Both the position numbers and the translations under genes were made by a program. DNA of 64,000 bases from a virus (lineage: Duplodnaviria; Caudoviricetes): positions 1-64,000 of the IMG/VR virus record IMGVR_UViG_3300033463_006479. One strand, written 5' to 3'. Every line of letters begins with the position of its first letter. Positions within the stretch are counted from its first letter, which is position 1. Below the pieces are notes generated by a model. It was not told where the DNA came from. It did not search any database and saw only the letters and a list, made by a program, of their open reading frames with translations. This document shows, piece by piece, positions 8,871 to 63,749 of the stretch.

Positions 8871-9590
8871 TTAACTGTTGAATATCGGTTGTTTTTTCGG
8901 ACACTTTTCCATTGGCGATTTCTTGAATGTTTCTGCGCAGTACGCCACTTTCCTCACATCCCATTTTGACAAGTCCTGCTTAAATTTCCTTGCCCCGTAG
9001 AACATACCCTCCATATTTATCACATTGCCTACATTCCAACCAGATAAATCTTGATTGAATTTCGCAGAATAACCGAACATATAATGTGTGTCGGTAACAT
9101 TATGCACATCCCACCCAGATATGTTTCGGTTGAACTCTTTTGTGTATTTGAACATACCACGCATAATCTGCACACTACCGACATCCCATTTTGATATGTT
9201 GCAGTTGAAGTCATCCGCACTATTAAACATATCACTCATATCAATAACATTGCTGACATCCCATCTTGATATGTCGCCGTTGAATCTGTGTGCACAGAAA
9301 AACATATAGGACATATTTTTTACATTCCTCACATTCCATCTGGATATGTTACCATTAAAACTGCATTTTGAAGAAAACAGACTGCTCATATCTGTTATGG
9401 CAGAAGTGTCTATGTCGTTGAGGTCGCACTCGTCTCCAAACATATCAATATGCACATCAACCAATTCAATCAGCTCATCCTTCGTTTTCGGATGGTATTT
9501 GTAAGGGGACAATTCGGACAACCGTGTTTTTGTAATCGGTTTTATGTCAAGTTTCTCGTTTATGTATGCCGCCGAATTGAGTATTCTCAT
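8871..9590 (-). CDS. Tagged DUF285/PARCEL (BspA-like) repeat protein
   Basis: Tag MRILNSAAYINEKLDIKPITKTRL (start moved to 9590), followed by FNGDISRWDVSNVxxMxxMF repeats. Confidence 0.85.
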   Translation of the reverse strand: MRILNSAAYINEKLDIKPITKTRLSELSPYKYHPKTKDELIELVDVHIDMFGDECDLNDIDTSAITDMSSLFSSKCSFNGNISRWNVRNVKNMSYMFFCAHRFNGDISRWDVSNVIDMSDMFNSADDFNCNISKWDVGSVQIMRGMFKYTKEFNRNISGWDVHNVTDTHYMFGYSAKFNQDLSGWNVGNVINMEGMFYGARKFKQDLSKWDVRKVAYCAETFKKSPMEKCPKKQPIFNS

Positions 9591-9609
9591 TATAATGCCG
9601 TTATATGTT

Positions 9610-10119
9610 TCAGTTGCCAAGGACTATCGAACCGCCCTCAACGTGTTTTGCCCTCTCATTTTCACCAAGCATATTTGTCGGGCGTTTCTTCTTTCCACGC
9701 TTGGCATCCCTTTCGTTCAACGCAGCGTTTGTGCTTGCGTTAAGTTTTTCTGCGGCTGAAGTTATCTTGTCCCCAGTTGTCGGCTCTGGCTTGTCTGGCG
9801 GTGTCGCCTTCTGCGGTGTCTTTGCATACACGACAGAAGCATCACCGACTTTCGGTATGCTGACAAAATCATTCAAATCAACGGCAAACGGGTTGTATAT
9901 GTTGTTAGCCCACATAATGGCATCAATCTTTGAACAGTCGCCATAGTATTGGTATGCTATCTTGTCAAGGCGCATTTCCTCGCTTGTCTGTACAAAATGA
10001 ACGCTGTCCGTTATCTCCGATAACAGCTCGTAATTGGCGGTAGGAGCGGATATGTCCAGAAACTCCCCGTCTGGCGTGGTGATTTTCGGTTTTGTTGTCA
10101 ACGTAGGATTGTCCATCAA
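9610..10119 (-). CDS. Baseplate wedge protein, T4 gp53-like (LysM-like)
   Basis: RLDKIAYQYYGD...IMWANNIYNPF...IP motif. Late promoter at 10136-10143. Confidence 0.7.
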   Translation of the reverse strand: MMDNPTLTTKPKITTPDGEFLDISAPTANYELLSEITDSVHFVQTSEEMRLDKIAYQYYGDCSKIDAIMWANNIYNPFAVDLNDFVSIPKVGDASVVYAKTPQKATPPDKPEPTTGDKITSAAEKLNASTNAALNERDAKRGKKKRPTNMLGENERAKHVEGGSIVLGN

Positions 10120-10135
10120 GCAAATATACTATGTA

Positions 10136-10143
10136 TATTTATA
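10136..10143 (-). promoter_or_regulatory. T4-type late promoter TATAAATA
   Basis: Exact match upstream of the baseplate gene. Confidence 0.65.
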
Positions 10144-10166
10144 ACAGCCGTCAAATATGATAACTT

Positions 10167-10874
10167 CTACACGCTAAATTTCGGCTGTTTGTGCGGCTCA
10201 TATTCCAGATTGCAACCACGGAACATATTGTGGTTGTATTTGGCCTTATATGCTTTCCATTTGGAAAGGTCGCCAGTGAATTTTGCGTATTCAAACATAT
10301 GGTTCATCATCTCAACATTTTGCACATCCCAGTCGGATATGTCTTGGTTGAAATCCGAATACCCAAACATTCCAGTCATATACACAACATTTCTGACATT
10401 CCATTTGGAAAGGTCGCCATTGAATATTGAATGCTGGAACATATAACTCATAGTTTCAACATTGCCCACATCCCAGTTTGATATATCACCACAGAAATTG
10501 GAGTTTTTGAACATTCTATACATATTGTTCACTTTTGAAACATCCCATTTTGATATGTCCCCGTTGAAATTTGAGAACATAAACATACCTTCCATATTTC
10601 TCACATTGCCGACATTCCACAATGATATGTCCCCGTTGAACGCAGAACCGTTAAAAAGAAATGACATATCCGTTATTGCGGAGGTGTCTATGTCGTTTAA
10701 ATCACATTCAAACCCAATATCCCCAATTCTGTCTATAACCAAATCCGCAAGTTCGTCCTTGGATTTTGGTGAAAACCTATAAAACCCCCTACCATATTTG
10801 GCGAGTTGGGATTTTGAAATCGGCTTGATTGTGAGCTTTTCTGATATGTATTTTTTTGTGTCAAGTATTTCCAT
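10167..10874 (-). CDS. Tagged DUF285 repeat protein
   Basis: MEILDTKKYISEKLTIKPISKSQL followed by DUF285 repeats. Confidence 0.85.
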   Translation of the reverse strand: MEILDTKKYISEKLTIKPISKSQLAKYGRGFYRFSPKSKDELADLVIDRIGDIGFECDLNDIDTSAITDMSFLFNGSAFNGDISLWNVGNVRNMEGMFMFSNFNGDISKWDVSKVNNMYRMFKNSNFCGDISNWDVGNVETMSYMFQHSIFNGDLSKWNVRNVVYMTGMFGYSDFNQDISDWDVQNVEMMNHMFEYAKFTGDLSKWKAYKAKYNHNMFRGCNLEYEPHKQPKFSV

Positions 10875-10876
10875 AG

Positions 10877-12311: not shown

Positions 12312-12881
12312 CTATAAATCACGGACAAGCCTCAACGGAAATGCGTATCTGCCCTTATCCACCTTTTTCGTATAGACAAACGGGTCGTTGTATCTTCCGC
12401 AAAATCTGTATTTTACGCCGCTTTCTTCCTTAACCCATATCATAAATATGTTATCATCAACGTGTTCCTTGTTCTCCACATAGCCAGAATAGATTGCGTT
12501 GAAACTATATAAGTCATCACCTCCATATTCAGCAGACAGCAAATTTTGGAATTTGTCCATACAATGCGTTCTCAAACTCCTTATGTCATCCATAGTCGGC
12601 ATATGCCACCCCTCTGGTATAATCTTCAATGCACTTTCATAAGTGTAGAATACCCCGTATTCTGGATTGTCGTTGAAATAGAAAAAATCCTTTTGCGGAT
12701 AAAGGCGTTCCTTATATGGTAACAATTTTAAGTTTTCCGTAGTCCAGTATCTGTCACGTATCTTGACTATGCGACCGAGCAAAGCGTCATTATAACAACC
12801 GCTGAATCCCATCAGCCGTTCCCTTGTAATCGGATGTATGTCAAGTTTCTCGTTGAATTGCTGTGCGTTAAGTATTTCCAT
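12312..12881 (-). CDS. Tagged FISUMP-domain protein
   Basis: Tag QQFNEKLDIHPITRERL. FISUMP motifs W..ENL, YG.FY, PEGWHMPT..D and LRLVRD. Confidence 0.75.
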   Translation of the reverse strand: MEILNAQQFNEKLDIHPITRERLMGFSGCYNDALLGRIVKIRDRYWTTENLKLLPYKERLYPQKDFFYFNDNPEYGVFYTYESALKIIPEGWHMPTMDDIRSLRTHCMDKFQNLLSAEYGGDDLYSFNAIYSGYVENKEHVDDNIFMIWVKEESGVKYRFCGRYNDPFVYTKKVDKGRYAFPLRLVRDL

Positions 12882-12912
12882 ATTCTAAATCTTATTTGTT
12901 TGTTTTTCCACG

Positions 12913-14295
12913 TCAAATTGTTTTCATATTTGTAATTTCAAAATTGCCGCTAACCTTTTCAAAATAGTCAAAGTCCATAGGATTTGGCTGGTTATCGTCT
13001 TCCAATAATTCCAATGTTGCAAATGTGTTCACACAAAGATTATCGTCCATATTTGAAACATATCTGTATGTCGCATTTTCATCCCACAATTGGTTATTAT
13101 ATCTGACAAATATGCCTTCCGACAATTTGGTGTCATTCTTTTTTACAATAAAATTGAAAATATCAGTATATTTTTCAATATCGTTTTTGCTTATGTATAT
13201 ATAAGCCCGCTCATCACCATAACCGTATCTGCCTATTGATATGATTCCAGTCCTTAACAGACTTTTCGGATGTAAAACCGAATTGACATACGACTGCAAT
13301 CTGCCGTTTGTCATAGGTTGTATCGCCAGTTTCTCTTTTATATAATCCAATGTATTCAGTATTCTCATATCAATTTTTGCTTTCCATATAAGTGTGGTCT
13401 GCGGAAGTTTCTGGTCGAATGTGATTCTTTTAAAATAATCAAAGTCCATATCACTTGGCTGATTCTTGTCTTTCAATATCTCAACTATGCTGAATTTGGA
13501 ATAAACCAGATTGTCATCCATATCCGAAATATATCTGTACGATAAACCTATGTTCGGAAAATCGCCCTTTAGCCGCACAAGCACGCCGTCTTTGGCATTT
13601 TCAACCTCATCGGAAAACATTGAAAAACCAATAACATCTTTATATTTTTCAATATCGGCATATTCCAAATAGATATAAAACAAGGTATCTTCCAACTCAT
13701 TTTTGAGATTTCTCCATTCACCTTTTGCTATATAACCAGTTTTCAGCAGGTTTTTTGGCGTTTTTGTATAAGAATACGACTTCAGCAGTTCTCTTGTTAC
13801 GGGTTTTATTCCAAGGTTTTCGTTTGCTTTCGCTGGATTCGCATTCGGGTTTTTCCACAATATGTGGCAATTTTCCAACGGAGGGTCATTGAAAAAACTT
13901 ATATCCAACGGCTGATTCAGATTGTCGTTTCGGTAAACGCATACCGCCTTGTCTATGTAATTTGATAATGTGTTGTCAAGCAATCCAAGGTATGATTCAA
14001 AATATCCATCATTGAACGGCTTTGTTGATATAAAACAGCCTTTGTCATATATCTTGACATTGGAAGTGTCTGGCAATTCAAGTTCAAGCATACCATCATA
14101 CTTGTATTTTTTTATGTCTTTATATGTGACATAAACGCTTTTTATTCCGCTTTCCCCCAAAAGTATATCGCCACTTTCCAGCCAGTCCTTTATGTTTGCT
14201 ACTGGAGGAAGATGCAGATTGGACATTCTGCTTTTTGTAAATGGCTTTATGTCAAGTTTCTCGTTTATGTATTGCTTGGTTTTCAATATTCTCAT
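12913..14295 (-). CDS. Tagged three-module protein (three TGD-type domains)
   Basis: Tags at the N-terminus, at ANENLGIKPVT and at MRILNTLDYIKEKLAIQPMT, each followed by an L(E/K/R)(S/T)G domain. Confidence 0.8.
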   Translation of the reverse strand: MRILKTKQYINEKLDIKPFTKSRMSNLHLPPVANIKDWLESGDILLGESGIKSVYVTYKDIKKYKYDGMLELELPDTSNVKIYDKGCFISTKPFNDGYFESYLGLLDNTLSNYIDKAVCVYRNDNLNQPLDISFFNDPPLENCHILWKNPNANPAKANENLGIKPVTRELLKSYSYTKTPKNLLKTGYIAKGEWRNLKNELEDTLFYIYLEYADIEKYKDVIGFSMFSDEVENAKDGVLVRLKGDFPNIGLSYRYISDMDDNLVYSKFSIVEILKDKNQPSDMDFDYFKRITFDQKLPQTTLIWKAKIDMRILNTLDYIKEKLAIQPMTNGRLQSYVNSVLHPKSLLRTGIISIGRYGYGDERAYIYISKNDIEKYTDIFNFIVKKNDTKLSEGIFVRYNNQLWDENATYRYVSNMDDNLCVNTFATLELLEDDNQPNPMDFDYFEKVSGNFEITNMKTI

Positions 14296-14298
14296 AGT

Positions 14299-15129
14299 TT
14301 AATTTATTATATCTCCTTTCAGCCAACTTGGTTTATTTTCTGGTAAAATAAGGTTTGGATTATCACTGCAATAAAAATTCCCACCAACCATACTCGGAGC
14401 TCCTTCAAGGGAAGTCAGACTATTACGACTGCAATTAAAATTTCCACCGACCTTTTGTGTTGCGCATTCAAGTGAGGTCAGTTCATTATCATTGCAATAA
14501 AAATCCCCGCCAACCATACTCGGAGCTCCTTCAAGATTGGTCAGATTGTTACCAATGCAACTAAAATCCCCACAAACTTCATTCGGTGCTCCTTCAAGTG
14601 TGGTAAGTTTATTGTTATAACAATAAAAATTCCCGCTCACTTTCTGCGGTGCTCCTTCAAGTGAAGTCAGTTTATTATCACGGCAACTAAAATCCCCACC
14701 GACTTTCTTCGGTGCACCTTCAAGTGTGGTAAGTTTATTGTTATAACAATAAAAATTCCCGCTCACTTTCTGCGGTGCTCCTTCAAGTGAAGTCAGTTTA
14801 TTATCACGGCAACTAAAATCCCTACCAACTTCCTGCGGTGCACCTTCAAGTGTGGTCAGATTAATATTAGTACAATAAAAACCACCACCAACCTTCCCGA
14901 ATCTTATTTTCAGTTTTCCATTAATTACTATATCCTCTAATACGATAACATCACCTTCGCAATCATAACACATTGTTTTTGGATTCCATATAAGATTGTT
15001 GCTTTCTGTGAATTGTCTTGATTTTTCATCAATATAATGTTCTTCCCTAAATTTGGAAAGCCTATCCTTTGTTACTGGCTGTATGGCCAGTTTTTCGTTT
15101 ATATATTCGTTTGAATCCAGTATTCGCAT
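14299..15129 (-). CDS. Tagged 21-aa LRR protein
   Basis: MRILDSNEYINEKLAIQPVTK followed by LTTLEGAPxxVGGxFxCxxNx repeats. Contains a near-exact 126-nt internal duplication. Confidence 0.85.
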   Translation of the reverse strand: MRILDSNEYINEKLAIQPVTKDRLSKFREEHYIDEKSRQFTESNNLIWNPKTMCYDCEGDVIVLEDIVINGKLKIRFGKVGGGFYCTNINLTTLEGAPQEVGRDFSCRDNKLTSLEGAPQKVSGNFYCYNNKLTTLEGAPKKVGGDFSCRDNKLTSLEGAPQKVSGNFYCYNNKLTTLEGAPNEVCGDFSCIGNNLTNLEGAPSMVGGDFYCNDNELTSLECATQKVGGNFNCSRNSLTSLEGAPSMVGGNFYCSDNPNLILPENKPSWLKGDIIN

Positions 15130-15134
15130 AATTA

Positions 15135-17318
15135 TTATTTTGTTATAAACACACCGTTCACCCAACTTGGCTTCTCTTCTGATAAAACAAGGTTTGGATT
15201 ATCACTGCAAATAAAATTACCGCCAACCACACTCGGAGTTCCTTCAAGTGTGGTCAGTTTATTGTTACCGCAATAAAAATTTCCGACCACTTTATTCGGT
15301 GCTCCATCAAGGGTGGTCAGTTTATTATTACTGCAATTAAAACCACTTCCAACTTTCTGTGATGCTCCTTCAAGGGTGGTCAGATTATTATTACTGCAAT
15401 CAAAATACCCGCCGACTTCATTCGGTGCTCCTTCAAGGGTGGTCAGTTGATTGTGAAAGCAAATAAAATCCCTACCAACTTTTTGTGGCGCACATTCAAG
15501 CGTGGTCAGATTATTAACACTGCAAAGAAAATCACCGCCAACCGCACTCGGAGCTCCTTTAAGTGTGGTAAGTTTATTGTTATTGCAATAAAAATCCCCA
15601 CCGACTTTCTTTGGTGCTCCCTCAAGGGTGGTAAGTTTATTATTACTGCAATCAAAACTTCCGCTCACTTCCTTTGGTGCTCCATCAAGGGTGGTAAGTT
15701 TATTATTACAGCAATCAAAATACCCGCCGACCTTCCCGAATCTTATTTTCAGTTTTCCGTCATTAAATATATCCTCCGATACTCTAATATCACCTTCACA
15801 GTCATAACTCATTGTTTTTTGATTCCAAATCAATCTGTTTTCTTCTATGAATCTCCTTGCGTTTTTGTCAACAGAAGGCTCTTCTTTCATTTTGGCAAGC
15901 ATATCCTTTGTGACTGGGTGTATTGTCAGTTTCTCGTTTATGCTTGCGCCATCAGCTTTCCACACGCATCTCAAATTGTCAATGTTATCAACCAGCATAA
16001 GCAGAAGAGTTGATGTAATCGGTGGATTTATTATATCTCTGTTCCTATATATTGCAACCGCTTTTTCTGTAAATGTGCTTTTCTTCAGATTTAGGTTGTC
16101 ATCATATTTGGATACTGGAAGTGCCAATATGTCATATATAATGTTTTTGCATAAAAACAGACCTTGTGAACAATCCTGCTCTGTAGGTGGCATAGGAACT
16201 TTCCACTCCTTGAAGTCCTTTTCTGCGACAAATATCTGGTATCTTCTTGTGTCTCCCGCATATTCAGTCACAAGCACATCACCGCTTTCAAGCAGCAGTT
16301 TCGGTTTTTTTGAAAACAATTTTTTTACTGAATCCAGTCTGGATTTTGTAACGGGTTTGATGTCAAGTTTCTCGTTCATATCAATGCTTTTTGATTCCCA
16401 CACACATTTGAGATTGTTTTCATAAACAATGGATTCCAGTTTATTCACCAAATCAATTGTCAGCGGAGGCTTTATATCGGTCGTGCCCCTATATATGGCA
16501 AACGGCATTTCTGGAAGAGTTTTATGCGGCTTGATGAGGTCATCATCATATAATGACAACGGATATAATAATATACCGTATAAAAGATTTGCACAAGCAA
16601 ACGTACCTTTAGTGTAATCGTAAAGCTGGGCATCCGTTGGATTCACGTTCCATTTTTTGAAATCCTTTTCTTCTATGAATATTTGATATATTTTCATATT
16701 TTTTGAATACCCAGATACAAGTATGTCCCCCGTTTTAAGCAGTAATTTCGGTTTCCTTTGTAATTCGGCCTTCTCCGCATCAAGTCGGCTCTTTGTCATA
16801 GGTTTTATATCCAGTTTCTCCGCAATCACATCATTGTTTCTTTTTTTCCATACACATCGTTTTCCAGCATCAGTAGGATTTTCAAAATAATTTGAATCCA
16901 AAGGCTGCTGTTTTTTCTCGCCCCTATAAATGGCTGTTATTTGCCTTACAACTTCTTTGCCCGCAATCTGTGTTCTATAATGCAGGTTGTCATCAAATAT
17001 GGAAACAGTCATTATGTGCAATCCGTGGCCGACCATTGGAAACACAAACGCACCTTCCTTGAACTCCGCATCGTCTTTAAGGTGATACAAATTCAGTTTT
17101 GTGTTATAGTCGTAATTTTTGAAATCGTCATAGGACACATACGTCCACAACTGGTATGACTTGGTGTCATTCGGCCTTATATATATCAGAACTTTCACAA
17201 CATCACCAGTTTCAAGAATCGGTTTTGGGTTTCTCTGAATTGCAGCCAGCCGACTTCTTGTCATAGGTTTTATGTCAAGTTTCTCGTTTGCGAATCGTAA
17301 TGTGTCAAGTATTTCCAT
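15135..17318 (-). CDS. Tagged four-module protein (three TGD domains plus LRR)
   Basis: Four EKLxIxP tags. Start moved to MEILDTLRF, downstream of the promoter at 17338. Confidence 0.85.
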   Translation of the reverse strand: MEILDTLRFANEKLDIKPMTRSRLAAIQRNPKPILETGDVVKVLIYIRPNDTKSYQLWTYVSYDDFKNYDYNTKLNLYHLKDDAEFKEGAFVFPMVGHGLHIMTVSIFDDNLHYRTQIAGKEVVRQITAIYRGEKKQQPLDSNYFENPTDAGKRCVWKKRNNDVIAEKLDIKPMTKSRLDAEKAELQRKPKLLLKTGDILVSGYSKNMKIYQIFIEEKDFKKWNVNPTDAQLYDYTKGTFACANLLYGILLYPLSLYDDDLIKPHKTLPEMPFAIYRGTTDIKPPLTIDLVNKLESIVYENNLKCVWESKSIDMNEKLDIKPVTKSRLDSVKKLFSKKPKLLLESGDVLVTEYAGDTRRYQIFVAEKDFKEWKVPMPPTEQDCSQGLFLCKNIIYDILALPVSKYDDNLNLKKSTFTEKAVAIYRNRDIINPPITSTLLLMLVDNIDNLRCVWKADGASINEKLTIHPVTKDMLAKMKEEPSVDKNARRFIEENRLIWNQKTMSYDCEGDIRVSEDIFNDGKLKIRFGKVGGYFDCCNNKLTTLDGAPKEVSGSFDCSNNKLTTLEGAPKKVGGDFYCNNNKLTTLKGAPSAVGGDFLCSVNNLTTLECAPQKVGRDFICFHNQLTTLEGAPNEVGGYFDCSNNNLTTLEGASQKVGSGFNCSNNKLTTLDGAPNKVVGNFYCGNNKLTTLEGTPSVVGGNFICSDNPNLVLSEEKPSWVNGVFITK

Positions 17319-17337
17319 ATATAGATTATTCCGTATA

Positions 17338-17345
17338 TATTTATA
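17338..17345 (-). promoter_or_regulatory. Late promoter TATAAATA
   Basis: Exact match about 20 nt upstream of the ATG at 17318. Confidence 0.65.
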
Positions 17346-17347
17346 AC

Positions 17348-17378
17348 AAAAAACGCAGGAATTTGTATCCTGCGTCCG
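17348..17378 (-). terminator. Intrinsic terminator
   Basis: acgcagga/tcctgcgt stem with a U-tract on the minus strand. Confidence 0.65.
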
Positions 17379-17383
17379 TAATA

Positions 17384-18334: not shown

Positions 18335-18339
18335 AGAAT

Positions 18340-19107: not shown

Positions 19108-19116
19108 TGTTTCAAT

Positions 19117-19737
19117 TTATTCTTTATACCAAGCAGGCTCAAAATGTTCAAGCGGAGAGCCGACAAACATATCGCTCATATCAACATCGTTTTTGACTTT
19201 CCATTTTGATAGGTCTCCGTTGAAATTGGAGTGTGAGAACATACCGCACATATTTTCCACATTTGAAACATACCAATCCGATATGTCCCCGTTGAAACAG
19301 CTGTTGGCAAACATACAGTACATATTGACAACATTTTCAACATTCCATTTTGAGATATCCCCTTCAAATTCCGATTCATTGAACATAAATGCCATAGTTT
19401 CAACATTACGCACATCCCATCTGGAAATGTCGCCGTTGAATGACGAACTTTCAAACATACCGCCCATATCTACAACATTTGAAACATCCCATCTGGAAAT
19501 GTCGCCATTGAATGTTGAGTTCGCAAACAAACTGGGCATATATTTAACCTTATGCGTGAGAATGAAGTTGAGGTCTGCGTTGTCACCATATTTGTCTATG
19601 GCCTCATTCACAATCTCCTCTATGGTTTCATCGGTTGCGACAACAAGGTTTGCCTTTATGTCGGAAAGCCTTGTTTTTGTAATCGGCTGTATGTTCAGTT
19701 TCTCGTTTATATATTTGCTTGAATTGAGTATTTTCAT
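19117..19737 (-). CDS. Tagged DUF285 repeat protein
   Basis: Same architecture as 18340-19107. Confidence 0.85.
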   Translation of the reverse strand: MKILNSSKYINEKLNIQPITKTRLSDIKANLVVATDETIEEIVNEAIDKYGDNADLNFILTHKVKYMPSLFANSTFNGDISRWDVSNVVDMGGMFESSSFNGDISRWDVRNVETMAFMFNESEFEGDISKWNVENVVNMYCMFANSCFNGDISDWYVSNVENMCGMFSHSNFNGDLSKWKVKNDVDMSDMFVGSPLEHFEPAWYKE

Positions 19738-19740
19738 AGT

Positions 19741-53736: not shown

Positions 53737-53739
53737 GAT

Positions 53740-54828: not shown

Positions 54829-55592
54829 AAATACTTGATTCAAACGAATATATAAACGAGAAACTGGACATCCAGCCAGTCACAAAGGATAGGTTTGCCA
54901 AATTTAAGGAAGAACCTTATATTGATGAAAAGACAAGAAAATTCATAGAAGACAACAATCTTATATGGAATCCAGTTACAATGAGCTATGACTGTGGAGG
55001 TGGTGTTAAAGCATCAGAGGATATAGTTGCTGACGGAAAACTTAAAATAAGATTCGGGAAGGTTGATGGGGATTTTAATTGCAGTGATAATCAACTGACA
55101 ACCCTTGATGGAGCACCGAAGGAAGTGGGTAGAAATTTTTATTGCAGAAGAAATAAACTGACAACCCTTGAAGGAGCACCGAAGGAAGTGAGCGGAAGTT
55201 TTTATTGCAGTCGTAATAATCTGACCACCCTTAAAGACGCACCACAAAAAGTGGGTGGAGATTTTGATTGCATTGGTAATAAACTAACCACCCTTGAAGG
55301 AGCACCGCAGGAAGTTGGTGGGTATTTTAGTTGCAGTAATAATAATCTTACAACGCTTGAAGGAGCACCTCAAGAAATAGGTAAGGATTTTGATTGCAGT
55401 TTTAATAATCTTACCACCCTTAAAGGAACACCGCAGAAAGTCGGTGGGTATTTTAATTGCAGTGACACCAATCTGACCACCCTTGAGTACGCACCGAATG
55501 AAGTTGACGGTTATTTTTATTGTTATAATAACTCAAGTCTTGTTTTGCCAGAGGAGAAACCGAGCTGGCTGAAAGGGAGAATAATAAGTTAA
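54825..55592 (+). CDS. Tagged 21-aa LRR protein
   Basis: Tag plus LRR repeats. Confidence 0.85.
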   Translation: MKILDSNEYINEKLDIQPVTKDRFAKFKEEPYIDEKTRKFIEDNNLIWNPVTMSYDCGGGVKASEDIVADGKLKIRFGKVDGDFNCSDNQLTTLDGAPKEVGRNFYCRRNKLTTLEGAPKEVSGSFYCSRNNLTTLKDAPQKVGGDFDCIGNKLTTLEGAPQEVGGYFSCSNNNLTTLEGAPQEIGKDFDCSFNNLTTLKGTPQKVGGYFNCSDTNLTTLEYAPNEVDGYFYCYNNSSLVLPEEKPSWLKGRIIS

Positions 55593-55595
55593 ATT

Positions 55596-56300
55596 ATGAA
55601 AACACTGAAAACTGAACAATACATAAGCGAGAAACTGACCATACAGCCAGTCACAAAGGACAGACTTTCCAAAATGAAAGAAGAGCCGTCTGTTGATGAA
55701 AAAGCAAGGCTATACATAGAAGAAAACAACTTGGTTTGGAATTCAAAAACAATAAGCTATGATTGTTATGGAGATGTTGATGTGTCGGAAGACATAGTTA
55801 CAGATGGAAAACTCAAAATAAGATTTGGAAAGATTGGTGGGTATTTTGATTGCAATAACAATAGACTGACTACGCTTGAAGGAGTACCGAAAGAAGTTGG
55901 TGGGTATTTTGATTGCAGTTATAACAATCTGACCACACTTGAAGGAGCACCGAATGTTGTTGGTGAAGATTTTTATTGTGATAACAATAGACTGACCACT
56001 CTTGAAGGCGCACCGAATGAAGTGAGTGGTGATTTTTTTTGCGGTGGCAATAAACTGGCCACACTTGAAGGAGCACCGAAGGAAGTTGGCGGTTGTTTCA
56101 GTTGTAGTAATAATAATCTTACAACGCTTGAAGGTGCACCGAAAAAGGTCGGCGGGTATTTTAATTGCAGTGACAATAATCTGACTACACTTGAAGGAGC
56201 ACCACAGAAAGTTGGTGGGGATTTTAATTGCATTAATAACCCAAACCTTGTTTTACCAGAAGAAAAACCAATCTGGGTGAAAGGTGAAATATATAAATAA
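55596..56300 (+). CDS. Tagged 21-aa LRR protein
   Basis: Tag plus LRR repeats. Confidence 0.85.
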   Translation: MKTLKTEQYISEKLTIQPVTKDRLSKMKEEPSVDEKARLYIEENNLVWNSKTISYDCYGDVDVSEDIVTDGKLKIRFGKIGGYFDCNNNRLTTLEGVPKEVGGYFDCSYNNLTTLEGAPNVVGEDFYCDNNRLTTLEGAPNEVSGDFFCGGNKLATLEGAPKEVGGCFSCSNNNLTTLEGAPKKVGGYFNCSDNNLTTLEGAPQKVGGDFNCINNPNLVLPEEKPIWVKGEIYK

Positions 56301-56303
56301 TTT

Positions 56304-56882
56304 ATGAGAATACTGAAGTCAGACACATATATAAACGAGAAACTGGACATTAAGCCAGTCACAAAGGACAGACTTTCCAAATTTATGGAAAAACTGTATG
56401 TTGATGAAAACACAAGGAAATTTATAGAAAAGAATAATCTTAAATGGAATCCATTATTAAAAGGTTATGACTGTGGAGGTGATGTTAAAGTATCAGAGGA
56501 TATAGTCACTGACGGAAAACTGAAAATAAGATTTGGGAAAGTCGGTGGTAATTTTCATTGCGGTAGTAATAATCTGACCACGCTTGAAGGCGCACCGAAG
56601 GAAGTCGGTGGGTGTTTCAGTTGTAGTAATAATAATCTTACAACGCTTGAAGGAACACCGAAAAATGTCTGTGGGTATTTTAATTGCAGTGATAATAAAC
56701 TGACTTCACTTGAAGGAGCACCGCAGGAAGTCGGTGGGAATTTTTATTGCAGTGGTAATGAACTGACTACGCTTGAAGGCGCACCGAAGGAAGTCGGTGG
56801 GGATTTTATTTGCAGATATAACCAAAACCTTGTTTTACCAAAAGAAAAACCGAGCTGGCTGAAAGGGAATTTTATAAATTAA
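56304..56882 (+). CDS. Tagged 21-aa LRR protein
   Basis: Tag plus LRR repeats. Confidence 0.85.
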   Translation: MRILKSDTYINEKLDIKPVTKDRLSKFMEKLYVDENTRKFIEKNNLKWNPLLKGYDCGGDVKVSEDIVTDGKLKIRFGKVGGNFHCGSNNLTTLEGAPKEVGGCFSCSNNNLTTLEGTPKNVCGYFNCSDNKLTSLEGAPQEVGGNFYCSGNELTTLEGAPKEVGGDFICRYNQNLVLPKEKPSWLKGNFIN

Positions 56883-56891
56883 ATCAAAATT

Positions 56892-57659
56892 ATGGAAATA
56901 CTGAAAACCGAACAATATATAAACGAGAAACTGACCATACAGCCAGTAACAAAGGATAGACTTTCCAAATTTAGGGAAGAACCTTATATTGATGAAAAGA
57001 CAAGGCAATTCATAGAATACAACAACCTTAAATGGAATCCAGTTACAAAAAGTTATGATTGTGAAGGTGATGTTAAAGTATCAGAGGATATTGTTGCTGA
57101 CGGAAAACTGAAAATAAGATTCGGAAAAGTTAGCGGGATTTTTGATTGCAGTAACAATAAACTGACATCGCTTGAAGGAGCACCGAATGAAGTTGGTGGT
57201 AATTTTTATTGCGGTTATAATGAACTGACCACCCTTGATGGCGCACCGCAATATGTTGGTGTTGGTTTTCATTGTTATGGTAATAAACTGACTTCCCTTG
57301 AAGGCGCACCTCAAGAAATAGGTAAAGATTTTGATTGCGGTTATAATAATCTGACCACCCTTGAAGGAGCACCGAAGAAAGTTGGTGGTAATTTTGATTG
57401 CAGCAGTAATGTATTGACCACCCTTGAAGGCGCACCAAAATATGTTGGTGATAATTTTATTTGCAGTTATAATAAACTGACCACTCTTGAATGCGCACCG
57501 CAAGAAGTTGGTGTGGGTTTTTATTGCACTTCCAATAATCTGACCTCTCTTGAAGGTGCACCGAATAAAGTCGGTGGGTATTTTTATTGCAGTGATAATT
57601 CAAACCTTGTTTTACCAAAAGAAAAACCGAGCTGGGTGAAAGGAGAAATAATAAGTTAA
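56892..57659 (+). CDS. Tagged 21-aa LRR protein
   Basis: Tag plus LRR repeats. Confidence 0.85.
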   Translation: MEILKTEQYINEKLTIQPVTKDRLSKFREEPYIDEKTRQFIEYNNLKWNPVTKSYDCEGDVKVSEDIVADGKLKIRFGKVSGIFDCSNNKLTSLEGAPNEVGGNFYCGYNELTTLDGAPQYVGVGFHCYGNKLTSLEGAPQEIGKDFDCGYNNLTTLEGAPKKVGGNFDCSSNVLTTLEGAPKYVGDNFICSYNKLTTLECAPQEVGVGFYCTSNNLTSLEGAPNKVGGYFYCSDNSNLVLPKEKPSWVKGEIIS

Positions 57660-57662
57660 AAT

Positions 57663-58556
57663 ATGCAAATACTGAAAACCGAACAATACATAAACGAGAA
57701 ACTGACCATACAGCCAGTTACAAAGGACAGACTTTCCAAAATGAAAGAAGAGCCTTCTGTTGATAAAAAAGCAAGGCGATTCATAGAAGAAAACAACTTG
57801 GTTTGGAATCCAGTAACAATGAGTTATGACTGTGATGGTGATGTCAAAACATCAAAGGATATAGTTGCTGGTGGAAAATTGAACATAAAATTCGGAAATG
57901 TCGGCGGGGAGTTTAATTGCAATGAAAGTCATCTGACCACACTTGAAGGCGCACCGCAGGAAGTATGTGGAAGTTTTAGTTGCAATCATAATAATCTGAC
58001 CACCCTTGAGGGCGCACCGAAGAAAGTCGGTGGGCATTTTTATTGCATTGGTAATAATCTGACCACCCTTGAATGCGCACCAAATGAAGTTGGTGAAAAT
58101 TTTTATTGCAGTTATAATGAACTTACCTCGCTTGAAGGAGCACCGAAGAAAGTCGGCGGATATTTTGATTGTAGTAACAATAAATTGAAAATACTTGATG
58201 GTGCACCGCAGGAAGTGGGTGGAAATTTTGTTTGCAGTTTTAATAATCTGACCACACTTGATGGCGCACCGAAAAAAGTAGGCTGGTATTTTGATTGCAG
58301 TCATAATAATCTAACTTCACTTGAAGGTGCACCGCAGGAAGTTTATGGAGGTTTTTATTGCAGTAACAATAATTTGACCTCGCTTGAAGGTGCACCGAAT
58401 AAAGTGGATGGGGGTTTTAGTTGCAATAGTAATAATCTGACTTCACTTGAAGGCGCACCGAAAAAGGTTGGCGGTGATTTTTATTGCAGTTATAATCCGA
58501 ATTTGTATTTGCCTAAAGAAAAACCGAGCTGGTTGAAAGGAAATTTTATAAATTAA
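57663..58556 (+). CDS. Tagged 21-aa LRR protein
   Basis: Tag plus LRR repeats. Confidence 0.85.
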   Translation: MQILKTEQYINEKLTIQPVTKDRLSKMKEEPSVDKKARRFIEENNLVWNPVTMSYDCDGDVKTSKDIVAGGKLNIKFGNVGGEFNCNESHLTTLEGAPQEVCGSFSCNHNNLTTLEGAPKKVGGHFYCIGNNLTTLECAPNEVGENFYCSYNELTSLEGAPKKVGGYFDCSNNKLKILDGAPQEVGGNFVCSFNNLTTLDGAPKKVGWYFDCSHNNLTSLEGAPQEVYGGFYCSNNNLTSLEGAPNKVDGGFSCNSNNLTSLEGAPKKVGGDFYCSYNPNLYLPKEKPSWLKGNFIN

Positions 58557-58565
58557 ATCAAAATT

Positions 58566-59585
58566 ATGCAAATACTGAAAACCGAACAATATATAGACGA
58601 GAAACTGGTAGTTAAACCATTAACAAAGGATAGGCTTGTCAAATTTAAAGAAGAGCCTTCTGTTGATGAAAACGCAAGGCAATTCATAGAAAAAAACAAC
58701 TTGGTTTGGAATCCCAAAACAATGAGTTATGACTGTGATGGCGATGTTAGCGTATCAGAAGATATAGTCATTGACGGAAAATTGAAAATAAGATTCGGAA
58801 AAGTTAGTGGATGTTTTGATTGCAGTTATAACAAACTGATATCGCTTGAAGGAGCACCGAAGAAAGTGGGCGGGGATTTTAGTTGCAGTCATAATAAACT
58901 GACCACCCTTGAAGGAGCACCGCAGAATGTGGGCGGGAAATTTAATTGCATTCATAATAAACTGACTACCCTTGAAGGAGCTCCGAATGTGGTTGGTAAC
59001 AGTTTTTATTGCAGCAAAAATGAACTGACCACCCTTGAAGGAGCACCGCAGAAAGTGGGCAGGGATTTTAATTGTAGTGATAATAATCTAACCACACTTG
59101 AGGGCGCACCACAAGAAGTTGGAGGTAAATTTGATTGCGATAACAATATACTGACATCACTTGAAGGCGCACCGAAGAAAGTCGGCTGGGATTTTTATTG
59201 CAGTGTTAACAAGCTAACCTCACTTAAAGGTGCGCCGAATGAAGTGGGCGGGGATTTTTATTGCTATTATAATAAACTGACCTCGCTTGAAGGTGCGCCA
59301 CAAAAGGTTGGTAAAACTTTTGATTGCAGTGACAATAAACTAACAACACTTGAAGGAGCACCGAGTGTTGTTGGCAGAGGTTTTTGTTGCAACAAAAATA
59401 ATCTGACTACCCTTGAAGGAGCACCGCAGAAAGTTGGTGAGGATTTTATTTGCTTTCACAATCAACTTACCACCATTGAAATAGCACCGCAGGAAGTCGG
59501 AGGCGATTTTTTTTGCAGCAATAACCCAACCCTTGTTTTACCAAAAAGAAAACCGAGCTGGCTGAAAGGAAATATAATACGTTAA
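58566..59585 (+). CDS. Tagged 21-aa LRR protein
   Basis: Tag plus LRR repeats. Confidence 0.85.
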   Translation: MQILKTEQYIDEKLVVKPLTKDRLVKFKEEPSVDENARQFIEKNNLVWNPKTMSYDCDGDVSVSEDIVIDGKLKIRFGKVSGCFDCSYNKLISLEGAPKKVGGDFSCSHNKLTTLEGAPQNVGGKFNCIHNKLTTLEGAPNVVGNSFYCSKNELTTLEGAPQKVGRDFNCSDNNLTTLEGAPQEVGGKFDCDNNILTSLEGAPKKVGWDFYCSVNKLTSLKGAPNEVGGDFYCYYNKLTSLEGAPQKVGKTFDCSDNKLTTLEGAPSVVGRGFCCNKNNLTTLEGAPQKVGEDFICFHNQLTTIEIAPQEVGGDFFCSNNPTLVLPKRKPSWLKGNIIR

Positions 59586-59588
59586 ACT

Positions 59589-60101
59589 ATGAAAATACTG
59601 GATTCAAACGAATACATAAACGAGAAACTGAACATACAGCCAGTTACAAAGGATAGGCTTTCCGATTATAAAAAGCCATCTGTTGATAAGGAAACAATAC
59701 GATTTATAGAAGAGAAAAATCTTATATGGAATCCATTATCAAAATGTTATGATTGCGGAGGTAATGTTAGAGTATTAGATGATATGGTCATTGACGGAAA
59801 ACTCAAAATAAAATTCGGGAAAGTCGGTGGTGGTTTTGATTGCAGTAACAATAAACTGACCACACTTGAAGGCGCACCGCAGGAAGTGCGTGGAGGTTTT
59901 TATTGTAATAACAATAATCTGACCTCGCTTGAATGTGCACCACAAAAAGTTGGTGGAAATTTTAATTGCAGTTCTAATAATCTAACCTCGCTTGAATGCG
60001 CACCACAGAAAGTTGGTGGTGATTTTTATTGCAGACATAATCCAAACCTTGTTTTACCAGAAGGAAAACCGAGCTGGCTGAAAGGAGAAATATATGACTA
60101 A
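59589..60101 (+). CDS. Tagged 21-aa LRR protein
   Basis: Tag plus LRR repeats. Confidence 0.85.
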   Translation: MKILDSNEYINEKLNIQPVTKDRLSDYKKPSVDKETIRFIEEKNLIWNPLSKCYDCGGNVRVLDDMVIDGKLKIKFGKVGGGFDCSNNKLTTLEGAPQEVRGGFYCNNNNLTSLECAPQKVGGNFNCSSNNLTSLECAPQKVGGDFYCRHNPNLVLPEGKPSWLKGEIYD

Positions 60102-60104
60102 TTT

Positions 60105-60605
60105 ATGAGAATACTGGATTCAAAAGAATACATAAGCGAGAAACTGGATATTAAACCTATAACAAAGAAAAGATTGAAAAGCGGTATGTTCGATTGGAAA
60201 AATAAATTGAAAACTGGAGATGCCGTTATCATTAAACTTGTGTCGGATTCAAAAAAAGAATATACAGTTGAGTTTTTTTATGTATCTGAAGAAGATTACA
60301 ACCAATACAAATCAATCTTTAACTTTGATATGGCCAGCATAGAAACCGATAAATTGAAAAACGGTATGTTCATAAGGTGGCGTTGGGGTGATAAAAAATA
60401 TGAATTTAGTATGGTAAGCCAGTATGGTGACATTAATGCAATGCGAACAACAAGTGCTGGCAATTATGAGTATGTATGCCGCATATACCGCAACGAGAAA
60501 TTTGAATATCCGCTAACTGGAAAATATTTCAAAGACAACCAAAATCTTGTTTTTGCGTTGTCTTACGGCTGGTCACTTGTTTATGATTCTGTTTTAAATC
60601 ACTAA
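60105..60605 (+). CDS. Tagged TGD-domain protein
   Basis: YISEKLDIKPITKKRL, LKTGDAV, YVSEEDY and IYR. Confidence 0.75.
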   Translation: MRILDSKEYISEKLDIKPITKKRLKSGMFDWKNKLKTGDAVIIKLVSDSKKEYTVEFFYVSEEDYNQYKSIFNFDMASIETDKLKNGMFIRWRWGDKKYEFSMVSQYGDINAMRTTSAGNYEYVCRIYRNEKFEYPLTGKYFKDNQNLVFALSYGWSLVYDSVLNH

Positions 60606-61174: not shown

Positions 61175-61606
61175 ATGGCACGAATTAAAAGAATTGACGA
61201 GATGTCAAACAATAAGAAATACACACTCCGTGGGCTTGTTCTCGGAACAGAGCTTGACGGCAAATATATGATGACTGATGACGGACTTAAAGCTGTTTAT
61301 CACGCATTGTATAATGGTGAAGATGTAGATGGCGCAATTGAATTTGCCGAATATGCCGCTGAACGCATAAACAAAAGTGAGTTTGAAGCATACATCAGTG
61401 AATGCATAAAACCATTTATATATGATAAATTAAGCGATGACGCTTCATATAAAAAAATACTTGATACAATCTATGATGGTGATTATTTGAATTATTTGTC
61501 ACCAAGTGTTAGTGCATTTGAAGAATTTGATAACGGTAATTATACACAGTGGGCATACGAGGTTGCAAATTTGATTGGTCTTGGAAAATACTACGAAGAA
61601 AATTAA
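61175..61606 (+). CDS. Acidic protein with MARIKRIDE leader
   Basis: TATAAATA at 61143-61150. Leader resembles that of 7813-8181. Confidence 0.65.
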   Translation: MARIKRIDEMSNNKKYTLRGLVLGTELDGKYMMTDDGLKAVYHALYNGEDVDGAIEFAEYAAERINKSEFEAYISECIKPFIYDKLSDDASYKKILDTIYDGDYLNYLSPSVSAFEEFDNGNYTQWAYEVANLIGLGKYYEEN

Positions 61607-61631
61607 CGGGCAATATACTTATTCCGAAACA

Positions 61632-61661
61632 AAAAATGGCGGACTTGAATCCGCCATTTTT
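61632..61661. terminator. Bidirectional intrinsic terminator
   Basis: aaaaatggcgga-cttgaa-tccgccattttt. Confidence 0.85.
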
Positions 61662-61679
61662 CATATATTGTTGTTTGTG

Positions 61680-62006
61680 CTATTTCTTGAAAACATAATC
61701 AAGCATTTCTTTGCAAAAGTCATTCAGTACATTAAATACAGATGAAACAAATTTGACGGCAAATTTTTCAAAATCTCCGTGAATCAATTTTGAGTAATTT
61801 ACTTGAAAATAATCCATACCACCTTCATCGTTTTCAAGTTCACATTTAATTGGCATAAAGCCGAAATATTTTTTTGCGTTTTTTCTTGTAAAATCTGAAA
61901 GCAATGTAAGAAACGTATTTTCTATACGGAGCAACCTTTCGGTATTGGTGCTGATTACAATTCCGTATTCAAAAAATCTTTTTACTTCATTTTCTGTTAT
62001 TTCATC
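61680..62006 (-). pseudogene. 3' part of a short-tag gene interrupted by a TnpB element
   Basis: DEITENEVKRFF... joins in frame to MTIQPITKGRLTNIKNNKL (63378-63322) when 62007-63321 is removed. Confidence 0.65.
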
Positions 62007-63321
62007 GGAATTATCCCTTTTAGTCTTGTTAAACTTCAAGTTCAATAGTCGCTTCGTTGCTGTCCGTTTGTTCACCAGTTTTCTTGGGTTTTGCAAACGG
62101 TTGATACACAGCTCCACGACTGTACTCGACATTCCTTGCCGAGATATGTCTCTGCCATTCATCTGGCTCGTATGATTCATTATTCTTCGCTGCGTTGATG
62201 TCTCTGTCGTGATGAGCACCGCAGTTCGGGCAAGTCCAATATCTTACACCCAGATTTTTGACTTTCTTGTTTATGTAACCGCACTCGCTGCACATTTGGC
62301 TTGATGGATAATATCTGTCGACTTTCATCATAGTTTTGCCGTTCCATCTGCATTTGTATTCGAGTGTCTGGACAAACTGATGCCAGTTACATTCGGAGAT
62401 GGACTCTGCCAACTTATGATTCTTCATCATTCCTTTAATGTTGAGGTCTTCAACTTTTATCAAATCATAAGTTTTGACAAGTTCTGTGGTTATCTTGTGT
62501 ATGTAATCGGTTTTGATGTCCGTGATTTTCTGGTAGATTCGGTTGCATTTCAACACTTGGTTTTCGTATCTCTTGCTTCCGTGTATCTTTCTTGCCAGAC
62601 ATCTTTGATATTTCTTTAACTTTCTTTTATAATATCTAATTATACTACGTTTACTTGCGTATTTGAATCCCTTGCTTGTTATAATCAACTCCTTTATTCC
62701 GAGGTCAAGACCCACACGCTCATAGGTTTTACTGCTTGGCGTATAATCTTGCTTGACTGTTATCGCTATATAATATCTGCCAGCCTTGTTTTTTGAAATT
62801 GTGGCAAAGCAAATCTTGCCAGTGATTTCTTTGGAGACCACAATGTCTATTCCGCTTTTGAGTTTCGGAATATAAAGTTTATTATCCTTGATTCGGAACG
62901 TGTTTGGCTGTGAAATCCTAAACGACTGTTTGTTCTTTCTGTTCTTGAACTTCGGGTATTTGCTTCTGCGCTTGTAGAAATTGTCATACGCAGTGTGCAT
63001 ATTCCTCAAACTGCATTGCAAAGACTGCAAAGGAATATCATTCAAGAATTCGAATCCTTCAGTCTTGCGGAGTTTGGTCAGTTTAGATTGTTGAATGTTG
63101 TATGAATCGCTTGTCTTTGTTTCTTCGTATTGTTGTTTCTTCTCATTAAGGAAATGGTTGTACACAAGCCTGCAACACCCGAACACATTAGCAAGATAAA
63201 CTTGCTGCTCTCTGTTCGGATATATCCTAAACTTATATGTGTAAACTCTTTCCATCTAATTGAAATACTATACTCTATTTATACCAATTACATTCTTACA
63301 AGACTAAATGGGATAATTCCG
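62006..63321 (-). mobile_element. TnpB-only element, type 1, second copy
   Basis: Inverted repeats CGGAATTATCCCTTTTAGTCTTGT / ACAAGACTAAATGGGATAATTCCG. Internal TATAAATA at 63276-63283. Confidence 0.85.
62029..63255 (-). CDS. tnpB: RNA-guided endonuclease TnpB
   Basis: Close paralog of 11005-12240 with the RuvC D-E-D triad intact. Confidence 0.95.
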   Translation of the reverse strand: MERVYTYKFRIYPNREQQVYLANVFGCCRLVYNHFLNEKKQQYEETKTSDSYNIQQSKLTKLRKTEGFEFLNDIPLQSLQCSLRNMHTAYDNFYKRRSKYPKFKNRKNKQSFRISQPNTFRIKDNKLYIPKLKSGIDIVVSKEITGKICFATISKNKAGRYYIAITVKQDYTPSSKTYERVGLDLGIKELIITSKGFKYASKRSIIRYYKRKLKKYQRCLARKIHGSKRYENQVLKCNRIYQKITDIKTDYIHKITTELVKTYDLIKVEDLNIKGMMKNHKLAESISECNWHQFVQTLEYKCRWNGKTMMKVDRYYPSSQMCSECGYINKKVKNLGVRYWTCPNCGAHHDRDINAAKNNESYEPDEWQRHISARNVEYSRGAVYQPFAKPKKTGEQTDSNEATIELEV

Positions 63322-63374
63322 TAATTTATTATTTTTAATGTTTGTCAATCTTCCTTTTGTTATTGGTTGGATTG

Positions 63375-63749
63375 TCATTTTTCACTAACGCATAAAGATT
63401 CGTTGAATATCTCATCTTCAATAAGCAAGTCATCATATCCTTGGTCTTCAAGTTCTTTGAGCAAATCAGCATATTGTTCCTTTGTAGCTGGGATTGTATC
63501 CTCTTGAACCCAGTCCCACCCGCAGGAACTATGCTGGCCAATATGTGAATAACACATAATAGTACCGTCATTGTTTTCTATATACGGAAACACAGCCACA
63601 ACCTCATCGTTATCTTCGTCATAGCGGAATGTAACAATGGTTTTACCAACAGTTTCCTTGTATTTGGCAAGTCTTGTTTTGGTGACGGGCTTTATGGACA
63701 ACCCTTCATCAAGTTTGTTGTATTCGTTGGATTTAAGAATTTTTGTCAT
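63375..63749 (-). CDS. Tagged protein, unknown acidic domain
   Basis: MTKILKSNEYNKLDEGLSIKPVTKTRL. TATAAATA at 63779-63786. Confidence 0.7.
   Translation of the reverse strand: MTKILKSNEYNKLDEGLSIKPVTKTRLAKYKETVGKTIVTFRYDEDNDEVVAVFPYIENNDGTIMCYSHIGQHSSCGWDWVQEDTIPATKEQYADLLKELEDQGYDDLLIEDEIFNESLCVSEK

Follow-up and report, generated by a model that had tools for sequence, protein, structure and literature searches.

What is the function of a short peptide that stands at the start of some fifty genes of a single virus, on proteins that are otherwise unrelated? The question is raised by the window studied here, which comprises positions 1 to 64,000 of a virus contig of 192,463 bp (IMG/VR record IMGVR_UViG_3300033463_006479, referred to as G000; CheckV completeness about 70%). 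An earlier, sequence-only reading of this window had counted 51 intact open reading frames (ORFs) with a common N-terminal tag, and had suggested that the tag is a capsid-targeting presequence, comparable to that of the internal proteins of phage T4, which is cut after an I-N-E motif; anchoring of the payloads on the virion surface was named as an alternative. The results described below show that the tag consists of two separable parts, a leader and a basic core, and they suggest that the leader is probably a signal that directs proteins to the prohead and is cut by the prohead protease.

A two-part tag on unrelated payloads

A 24-position hidden Markov model (HMM) was made from the tag and the six-frame translation of the window was searched with it, using a cut-off of E<0.01. 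This gave 64 copies of the tag, compared with 0 in each of 10 triplet-shuffled windows, and the copies were spread over 52 ORFs between positions 8871 and 63749, made up of 51 intact ORFs and one 25-aa remnant, in agreement with the earlier count. The wider scan that had been proposed along with that count showed that the whole 192-kb contig carries 93 copies in 77 ORFs; a complete 413-kb relative from IMG/VR (G001) has 60 tagged ORFs, and two further IMG/VR contigs gave 23 and 6 matches. In a profile search of 1.84 billion representative proteins only 171 tag carriers were obtained, and most of those among the matches listed (150 of the 171 representatives) have the tag at residue 1, as do 43 of the 52 ORFs in the window. 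No tag was found in LR756500.1, a 462-kb uncultured phage that is the nearest named relative, and the array of LRR-type genes gave no match to the phage collection by megablast. A literature survey, which took in the Jug-phage paper, a jumbo-phage comparative-genomics paper and keyword searches, revealed no earlier description of the tag. The tag is confined to one phage clade.

In the alignment of the tag, residues M1, E12, K13, L14 and P18 were invariant and I3, L4, Y9, I10, I16 and L24 were at least 90% conserved, and Ser or Thr was common at position 20 but not invariant. Several synonymous codons were used at the conserved residues L4, Y9, L14, I16, R23 and L24, which argues that selection acts on the peptide and not on a DNA site. 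A DNA-level signal, such as a recombination or shufflon site, had been considered in view of the serine invertase gene at 207-1169; it was ruled out by the synonymous codons together with the presence of copies inside ORFs.

The tag can be divided into residues 1-12, the leader (MxILxSxx[YF]I-x-E), and residues 13-24, the core (KLxIxP[VI][TS]KxRL). The core is basic, as the sequence-only reading had said of the KLxIxPxTKxRL terminus that would be left by cleavage, although that statement was a description and assigned the terminus no function. Copies inside ORFs retain only HMM positions 10-24 ([ILVM]-x-E-K-L-x-I-x-P-[VIM]-[TS]-K-x-R-L) and sit at the domain boundaries of multi-module ORFs; in the 16 internal copies that were read off, Glu was found at P1 in every case and an aliphatic residue at P3 in 15. 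Leaders without a core were found as MKILDSNSFIKE-G at 186702 and MVKSYIEFITE-S at 153719 of the contig and, in the window, as MENIKTFGEFINE-S on a 395-aa minus-strand gene (48497..49684) that has only this leader, resembling the T4 capsid-targeting sequence, and gave no Pfam or PHROG match. In L026, a related phage sequence with a more distant array, the core is constant and what precedes it takes three forms (MKILNTxQFNE, MK(T/K)YEE(Y/F)IxE, or no leader), and in L050, another related sequence, a core-like segment comes after a different leader (MTHIRKIDE-KFYIKPLTADKL). The occurrence of leader-only, core-only and other-leader genes indicates that leader and core are separable modules.

The claim that the tag is carried by at least five unrelated payload types was upheld by Pfam searches and by AlphaFold2 (AF2) models. 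A rough census of the window gave 24 LRR-type, 15 DUF285, 7 TGD-only and 3 CPxT payloads, 1 FISUMP payload and 3 others. The DUF285 (PF03382, 6e-61) and FISUMP (Fib_succ_major, PF09603, 4e-13) domains were identified by Pfam. The LRR payload matched Pfam weakly and was modelled as a solenoid with a pLDDT of 94-98, its nearest counterparts being short LRR domains of bacterial proteins of the IpaH/SspH/YopM type. The TGD domain is an orphan that was modelled with a pLDDT of 86-97 and gave no PDB or BFVD fold match at E<=0.001, and the CPxT class gave no match, the leads from a language-model atlas being no more than weak (clusters of viral hypothetical proteins, and a papain-like peptidase hit at 0.89). 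Among 126 representatives of the clade most payloads have no Pfam family and many are unique. One of the 126 matches MafB19-like deaminase and APOBEC_C models (2e-5 and 5e-4), although a simple motif search did not single it out; a tagged nucleic-acid deaminase would be effector-like cargo. Every small DUF285 and FISUMP gene on the contig has the tag or the core. Among the tagged proteins there was no match to any known family of cytoplasmic enzymes, and the tag is absent from the methylase, primase, kinase and topoisomerase; an equal frequency of the tag on recognisable cytoplasmic enzymes, which would have spoken against the earlier claim, was thus not seen.

In the AF2 models the tag stands apart from the payload. 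For a tag-TGD-core protein (45841-46440) both flanking tag copies had a pLDDT of 49-59 compared with 86-97 for the domain, and for an LRR protein (56892-57656; mean pLDDT 94) the values were 66-72 for the tag and 94-98 for the payload, the tag of the latter being modelled as two short helices linked by an extended LxIxPVT segment. The low confidence of the tag and its position outside the payload folds suggest that it would act as an accessible linear motif and not as part of the fold. The idea that TGD is a receptor for the core was rejected, as AF2 left both flanking cores undocked.

The leader, the prohead protease and its scaffold repeats

The major capsid protein gene lies in the window (42367..44169, plus strand; TATAAATA at 42260) and was recognised by a match to the gp23-like family PF07068 (1.5e-30); a portal gene (84094-85788, phrog_213) and a large terminase (TerL) gene (110025-111956) are found elsewhere on the contig. 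The capsid protein is 90% identical to that of G001, 44-48% to that of LR756500.1 and 33% to those of Lak megaphages, and other matches were to phages of Tenacibaculum, Flavobacterium and Chryseobacterium. The window thus appears to come from a huge, uncultivated phage whose head is of the T4 type and whose host probably belongs to the Bacteroidota. Despite the 90% identity of the capsid proteins, only 25.9 kb of the 192-kb contig could be aligned to G001 by blastn. G001 encodes an S77 prohead protease (PF03420, 49.5 bits; phrog_207, 6.8e-34), and a T4-type head module is therefore represented by the gp23-like capsid protein of the contig and the gp21-like protease of G001.

In T4, gp21 cleaves after L/I-X-E and the targeting propeptides of the internal proteins have 10-19 residues; in that of IPIII, residues 4 and 7 matter for targeting and residues 8 and 10 for processing (PMC9026906). 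The T4 capsid-targeting sequence is MKTYQEFIAE (PMC8442874), and the internal proteins of T-even phages are a diverse set with only the targeting sequence in common (PMC3012670). In our material [FY]-I-x-E was found at the N-terminus of 54 tagged ORFs, and the consensus E-[FY]-I-x-E is the same as in T4. In L026 and G001 the same core is also preceded by variant leaders (MKTYEEYIEE, MKTYEEYISE, MKKYEEFIKE and MKTYSDFIGE) that match the T4 sequence at 7 of 10 positions. The pattern ^MK[TKS]Y.[EDQ][FY]I.E was matched by 4 leaders among 6660 open frames, for which a rough chance estimate is far below one. The P3 residue of the sites (I in leaders; I, L, V or M in the internal copies, as described above) does not fit the S/A/G-X-E motif of phiKZ and SPN3US.

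Sites of the same kind were also present in untagged proteins. The capsid protein begins as had been noted, with ...SINES...MLNES: its start is MYYNSINES, SINE-S occupying residues 5-9 and MLNE-S residues 48-52. We take MLNE-S, about 45 residues before the Pfam gp23 match begins, as the presumed propeptide boundary; the INE and an L-x-E of this N-terminal region are kept in the alignment with LR756500.1. In the first 16 residues of untagged G001 ORFs, [ILV]-x-E-S was found 21 times compared with 6.4 expected (P=3.6e-6), [FY]-I-x-E 10 times compared with 2.9, and E[FY]IxE 4 times compared with 0.39. The untagged ORFs with an N-terminal [ILV]-x-E-S are likely to encode other head proteins. The same enrichment, although weaker, was seen in the 192-kb contig; among the ORFs concerned are a group of large ones at 138.5-147.2 kb and that of a DUF285-repeat protein of 963 aa encoded outside the window (contig positions 142298-145189, minus strand). 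This protein has five [ILV]-x-E sites in residues 1-75 (SISE-K, AINE-S, LLE-K, FLTE-G and VVNE-G), and its neighbours are a cluster of large untagged ORFs with N-termini that contain RVNE-S, IILE-S and PVLE-S.

A more specific likeness was found in the G001 prohead protease itself (290916-292859), a protein of 647 aa in which the S77 domain is followed by 12 tandem 14-residue repeats of the form H(S/N)DYLAE(K/Q)L.... When the motif [YF][IL]xE[KQ][LMV] was counted in the 509 ORFs of G001, 25 copies were in tagged ORFs and 11 in the protease-scaffold repeats, and the remaining ~110,000 residues contained 3, compared with 2.0 expected. The tag (S-N-E-Y-I-N-E-K-L) and the scaffold repeat (H-N-D-Y-L-A-E-K-L) are alike at 7 of 9 positions. 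Tagged proteins and protease-scaffold fusions are not homologs, and have only this junction motif of 6-8 residues in common. The G001 enzyme belongs to a family of more than 6000 such fusions (PF03420 Peptidase_S77 with PF24554/DUF7603), and in each of 60 members inspected the C-terminal region contained 8-18 aromatic-[ILVM]-x-E sites, mostly aromatic-[ILV]-A-E. The repeat is homogenised to YLAE(K/Q)L in family members at least about 50% identical to G001, and LR756500.1, which has no tag, has a degenerate version of it. We infer that the protease cuts its own scaffold at these repeats, the scaffold being degradable like T4 gp22, and that the tag is a mimic of one such repeat.

The gp21-like protease to which the sequence-only reading had appealed was thus located, but in the relative: no ortholog of the G001 protease-scaffold gene was found on the 192-kb contig, which is incomplete. 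What the contig does carry is a weak S77-like ORF (150 aa, 104441-104893) that overlaps the end of a 444-aa ORF; the pair (104441-106184, minus strand) is kept at ~35% identity in G001 (37839-39627), away from the main protease gene, and might represent either a protease paralog or a split gene. In three more distant relatives, the DNA within 10 kb of the proteases had only other leader classes and no full tags, which limits the test of covariation between tag and protease to two genomes. A gene for an ATP-grasp (RimK-like) ligase lies near the prohead protease gene in G001 (284586-285992, minus strand) and in the related phage sequences L052 (12571-14007), L053 (12068-13480) and L050 (20823-21953). 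In the first three of these the N-terminus of the ligase is a leader with [IL]-x-E-S at its end (MKTLSQTYSLITE-S, for example), and the ligase may be a packaged enzyme. Just 3' of the protease gene of L053, a 381-kb phage, are genes for an ADP-ribosyltransferase (PF03496, 14461-14961) and for a 921-aa DUF285 protein (17354-20119); the PF03496 protein is reminiscent of T4 Alt, an ADP-ribosyltransferase that is packaged in the head. Recognition of the leader by a co-encoded radical-SAM maturase was also considered, and was not supported, as PF04055 showed no linkage to the arrays: the 192-kb contig, although it has 77 tagged genes, gave no match, and in G001 the two genes matched are distant from the arrays.

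The tagged genes and the head genes also have a promoter motif in common. The motif TATAAATA, the T4 late-promoter consensus, occurs 10-25 nt 5' of the first tagged gene of a run at 44226, 49798 and 56292 on the plus strand and at 17338, 18341, 30537, 40147 and 63779 on the minus strand, and these eight positions substantiate the earlier statement that several units begin at such motifs. Its occurrences are 78% intergenic, compared with 11% for the genome, with a peak 10-30 nt before start codons. It was found 5' of the capsid, portal, TerL and protease genes, of one tail-fibre gene, and of 14 run-leading tagged genes in each genome. Tagged runs and head genes would be driven alike by this late-type motif, that is, expressed late.

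Arrangement of the arrays and neighbouring genes

Both arrays read away from the capsid locus (40.2-44.2 kb), as had been claimed, with the minus-strand runs at 8871-40127 and the plus-strand runs at 44252-60605; tagged runs are also found directly 3' of the capsid, portal and TerL genes. The minus-strand array contains, in order of position, two tagged genes with DUF285 payloads (8871-9590 and 10167-10874; tag HMM 50.0 and 40.3 bits) and a run of 13 tagged genes (12312..24273). This run includes the FISUMP gene (12312-12881), multi-module ORFs with internal tag copies at 12913-14295 (3 copies), 15135-17318 (4) and 17384-18334 (2), and four core-only genes that start with ML(T/S)IKP (21123-21518, 21533-22294, 22315-22917 and 22920-23618). 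An untagged ORF of strongly hydrophobic, membrane type (20448..21110, minus strand), without a tag HMM match, lies inside it. The remnant (24486..24563, minus strand; 54.2 bits) consists of a complete tag with a stop after 25 residues and 3 residues remaining. It is followed by a run of 17 tagged genes with LRR-type, DUF285, TGD and CPxT payloads (24567..40127), in which further multi-module ORFs are found at 30540-31937 (2 copies), 34519-36039 (2) and 37642-39351 (3).

Between this run and the capsid locus there is a divergent TATTTATAAATA element (40147..40158), made of overlapping TATAAATA motifs on the minus strand at 40147 and on the plus strand at 40151, and directly 5' of the capsid gene a gene for a 659-aa homing/HNH endonuclease (40199-42178, plus strand; phrog_3339 1.2e-68, phrog_559 6.6e-42). 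Directly 3' of the capsid gene are four tagged genes (44252..46440, plus strand, led by the motif at 44226), with the modelled tag-TGD-core gene, which ends in a further 22 aa, as the last of their span. The plus-strand run of 14 tagged genes (49825..60605, with motifs at 49798 and 56292) comprises 13 LRR-type genes and one TGD gene (60105-60605). Near the end of the window, on the minus strand (63307..63749), a tagged gene with a unique payload (63375-63749) lies next to a core-only fragment (63307-63381), the two scoring 24.3 and 15.3 bits.

A second leader class, MA(R/H)I(K/M)(R/K)(I/A)(D/N)E, was seen on small genes that flank the arrays. Two are on the minus strand (7813-8181 and 8207-8659, MARIMKIDE- and MAHIKRANE-, ending in I/A-x-E; TATAAATA at 8208) and one on the plus strand (61175..61606, MARIKRIDE-; TATAAATA at 61143), and the near-identical M(T/V)HIKRINE is present in G001, L050, L052 and L053. 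This class is probably another head-targeting leader. Three TnpB (OrfB_IS605 / Cas12f-like TNB) genes, at 11005-12240 (minus), 46629-48266 (plus) and 62029-63255 (minus), interrupt or border the tagged arrays, each with TATAAATA on its 5' side (12261, 46484 and 63276, respectively); no TnpA was seen. Further from the arrays, a RlaP-type nucleotidyltransferase, a polynucleotide-kinase-like AAA_33 protein and a primase-like protein are encoded in a row at 4750-7762 (plus strand), a possible RNA-repair module, with the serine invertase gene and an N6/N4 DNA methylase gene (2117-2854) 5' of it.

Candidate mechanism, rival explanations and meaning

The model that we favour is as follows. The leader, a longer relative of the T4 capsid-targeting sequence, would probably bring the protein into the scaffolding core of the prohead, and it may do so by imitation of one repeat of the protease-fused scaffold domain. 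Cleavage by the S77 (gp21-type) protease at the [I/L]-x-E site, directly behind Glu12, would follow and leave the core as the new N-terminus; where cut site and core recur at domain boundaries, multi-module ORFs would be split into fragments that each have the core first. The cargo, a large, fast-diversifying set of binding-type proteins (LRR, DUF285, FISUMP and TGD), would be made late with the head proteins and kept within the capsid, from which it would probably pass into the host along with the DNA. For the role of the core we can offer guesses, a DNA tether or an ejection signal. The earlier proposal of a presequence cut after I-N-E is supported in silico by the type of head, the 7/10 identity of the leader, the scaffold motif, the promoters and the AF2 models; it has to be modified in that the tag has two separable parts, the payloads are acidic and the protease comes from a relative.

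Several considerations weigh against this model. Targeting, cleavage, residence in the capsid and injection are all predicted from sequence. As the main protease-scaffold gene is not on the contig, the motif link rests on G001 and its close relatives, and the 11 motif copies, being tandem repeats, represent one evolutionary event. The best-conserved residues, E12, K13, L14 and P18, straddle or follow the proposed cut, whereas in T4 the targeting information precedes it. At least 7 genes of the contig begin at the core (ML(T/S)IKP...) without a leader, which means either that their products escape loading or that the true address is the core, and the commonest leader of L026, MKILNTxQFNE, has Phe at P3 in place of Ile or Leu. 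The payloads, with a median pI of 5.2, are acidic and 124 to 727 aa long, and thus lack the small, basic character of the mature T4 internal proteins, although we regard that character as typical of the T4 cargo and not as part of the targeting mechanism. Finally, LRR, DUF285 and FISUMP domains are typical of surface proteins.

If the tagged proteins do enter the prohead and are cut, they might still be structural components and not injected effectors, forming an inner body, a scaffold-like matrix or capsid-associated parts in which the repeat domains serve assembly. This would agree with the imitation of a scaffold repeat by the tag junction, with the tandem, core-flanked TGD modules that resemble building blocks, with payload acidity as in many scaffold proteins, and with the 963-aa DUF285 protein, which has several N-terminal [IL]-x-E sites and stands among large virion-type genes. 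We nevertheless think it unlikely, since sequence and copy number differ greatly between close relatives (25.9 of 192 kb aligned at 90% capsid identity), which fits better with arms-race cargo, and AF2 did not dock the core onto TGD. A different explanation, in which the T4 likeness is secondary, is that the core (EKLxIxPVTKxRL) is the functional element, a peptide recognised by some other factor of the phage or the host, for instance a chaperone, a localisation partner or an enzyme that modifies it. In favour of this, the core is the most conserved part and the sole part retained in internal and core-only copies, it is combined with at least 4 different leaders, and next to the protease gene a gene for an ATP-grasp ligase has been conserved. 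However, the internal copies retain P3 and P1 of the protease site besides the core, Ser/Thr20 is common but not invariant, and radical-SAM genes are absent from the contig and unlinked to the arrays in G001, and we therefore regard this explanation as distinctly unlikely.

The surface anchor offered by the sequence-only reading, which would place the payloads on the exterior of the virion (head or tail fibres, decoration) as a set of adhesins, could account for the binding or surface-type character of the LRR, DUF285 and FISUMP domains and for the late expression with virion genes that the promoter motif predicts. It is disfavoured because the junction motif is common to an internal scaffold, and it is further at odds with a T4-type prohead protease that acts inside the prohead, with a tag that is predicted to be a flexible 24-aa peptide and no folded anchor domain, and with small proteins (150-360 aa) that show no sign of trimeric fibres; we consider it very improbable. 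That the common N-terminus is a relic of tandem duplication or domain shuffling in one family, with no signal function, seems hardly tenable: the tandem arrays are clearly expanding by duplication, but the tag has been kept in diverged phages (G001 and L026) and on five or more unrelated folds, its codons have changed synonymously, it is placed at the N-terminus in the database representatives, and its extra copies lie exactly at domain boundaries. A prohead-targeting, protease-cut leader thus remains the explanation that we think probable. A fuller version of it, in which the capsid carries a combinatorial library of 60-80 binders by means of a two-part address, the leader mimicking a scaffold repeat and being clipped and the core acting as a second signal, so that an antibody-like anti-defence repertoire is injected, is a possibility that we put forward tentatively and with some doubt.

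The likeness to T4 IPI, IPII and IPIII (and Alt) lies in a short N-terminal leader on unrelated payloads, its [FY]-I-x-E end and the gp21 L/I-X-E rule, and it extends to the gp23-like capsid, the S77 protease and the late-type promoter motif TATAAATA; in T-even phages, too, payloads are diverse and the targeting sequence is conserved (PMC3012670, PMC9026906). The two systems differ in that 60-80 tagged genes per genome are found here, in a system known from its genes alone, compared with a handful in T4, and in that the usual leader has 12 aa and not 10. A conserved 12-aa basic core follows the cut site, with nothing like it in T4; cut site and core are repeated within ORFs to give apparent polyproteins; and in place of small basic proteins the payloads are repeat or binder proteins that are acidic and 150-700 aa long. 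In phiKZ, 201phi2-1 and SPN3US many head proteins, including paralogous families, are processed after Glu by a diverged gp21-like protease, and giant-phage propeptides can hold several redundant sites (PMC9026906, PMC5694885). The motifs in those phages are of the S/A/G-X-E type, whereas here they are [ILV]-x-E, and no portable leader of shared sequence has been described there comparable to the recognisable, transferable one found here. In the MuF domain of polymorphic toxins and in the Dar proteins of phage P1, a conserved N-terminal part sends a variable C-terminal cargo into the capsid, to be delivered together with the DNA, and these addresses are folded domains or longer regions without a T4-type cleavage motif. 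The address described here is, by contrast, predicted to be a flexible peptide of 24 aa: a folded N-terminal domain of the MuF type was not seen, there being no Pfam family in the tag region and AF2 giving a flexible peptide of 24-30 aa. The mechanism would accordingly be the T4 capsid-targeting principle, and what would be new is its scale, the retained core, the internal copies of cut site and core, the acidic binder cargo and the likeness to the scaffold repeat.

If this is true, about one-tenth of the coding capacity of a 400-kb phage genome would be given over to head-loaded proteins under a readable peptide address, and the injected proteome of an uncultivated huge phage would be predictable from sequence. 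The T4 capsid-targeting principle would be extended over a very large evolutionary distance, and the mimicry of the scaffold would hint at the physical basis of targeting. For engineering, the tag could also be used as a packaging handle, and the arrays would represent a natural library of compact LRR-type binders, the targets of which are perhaps host defence proteins.

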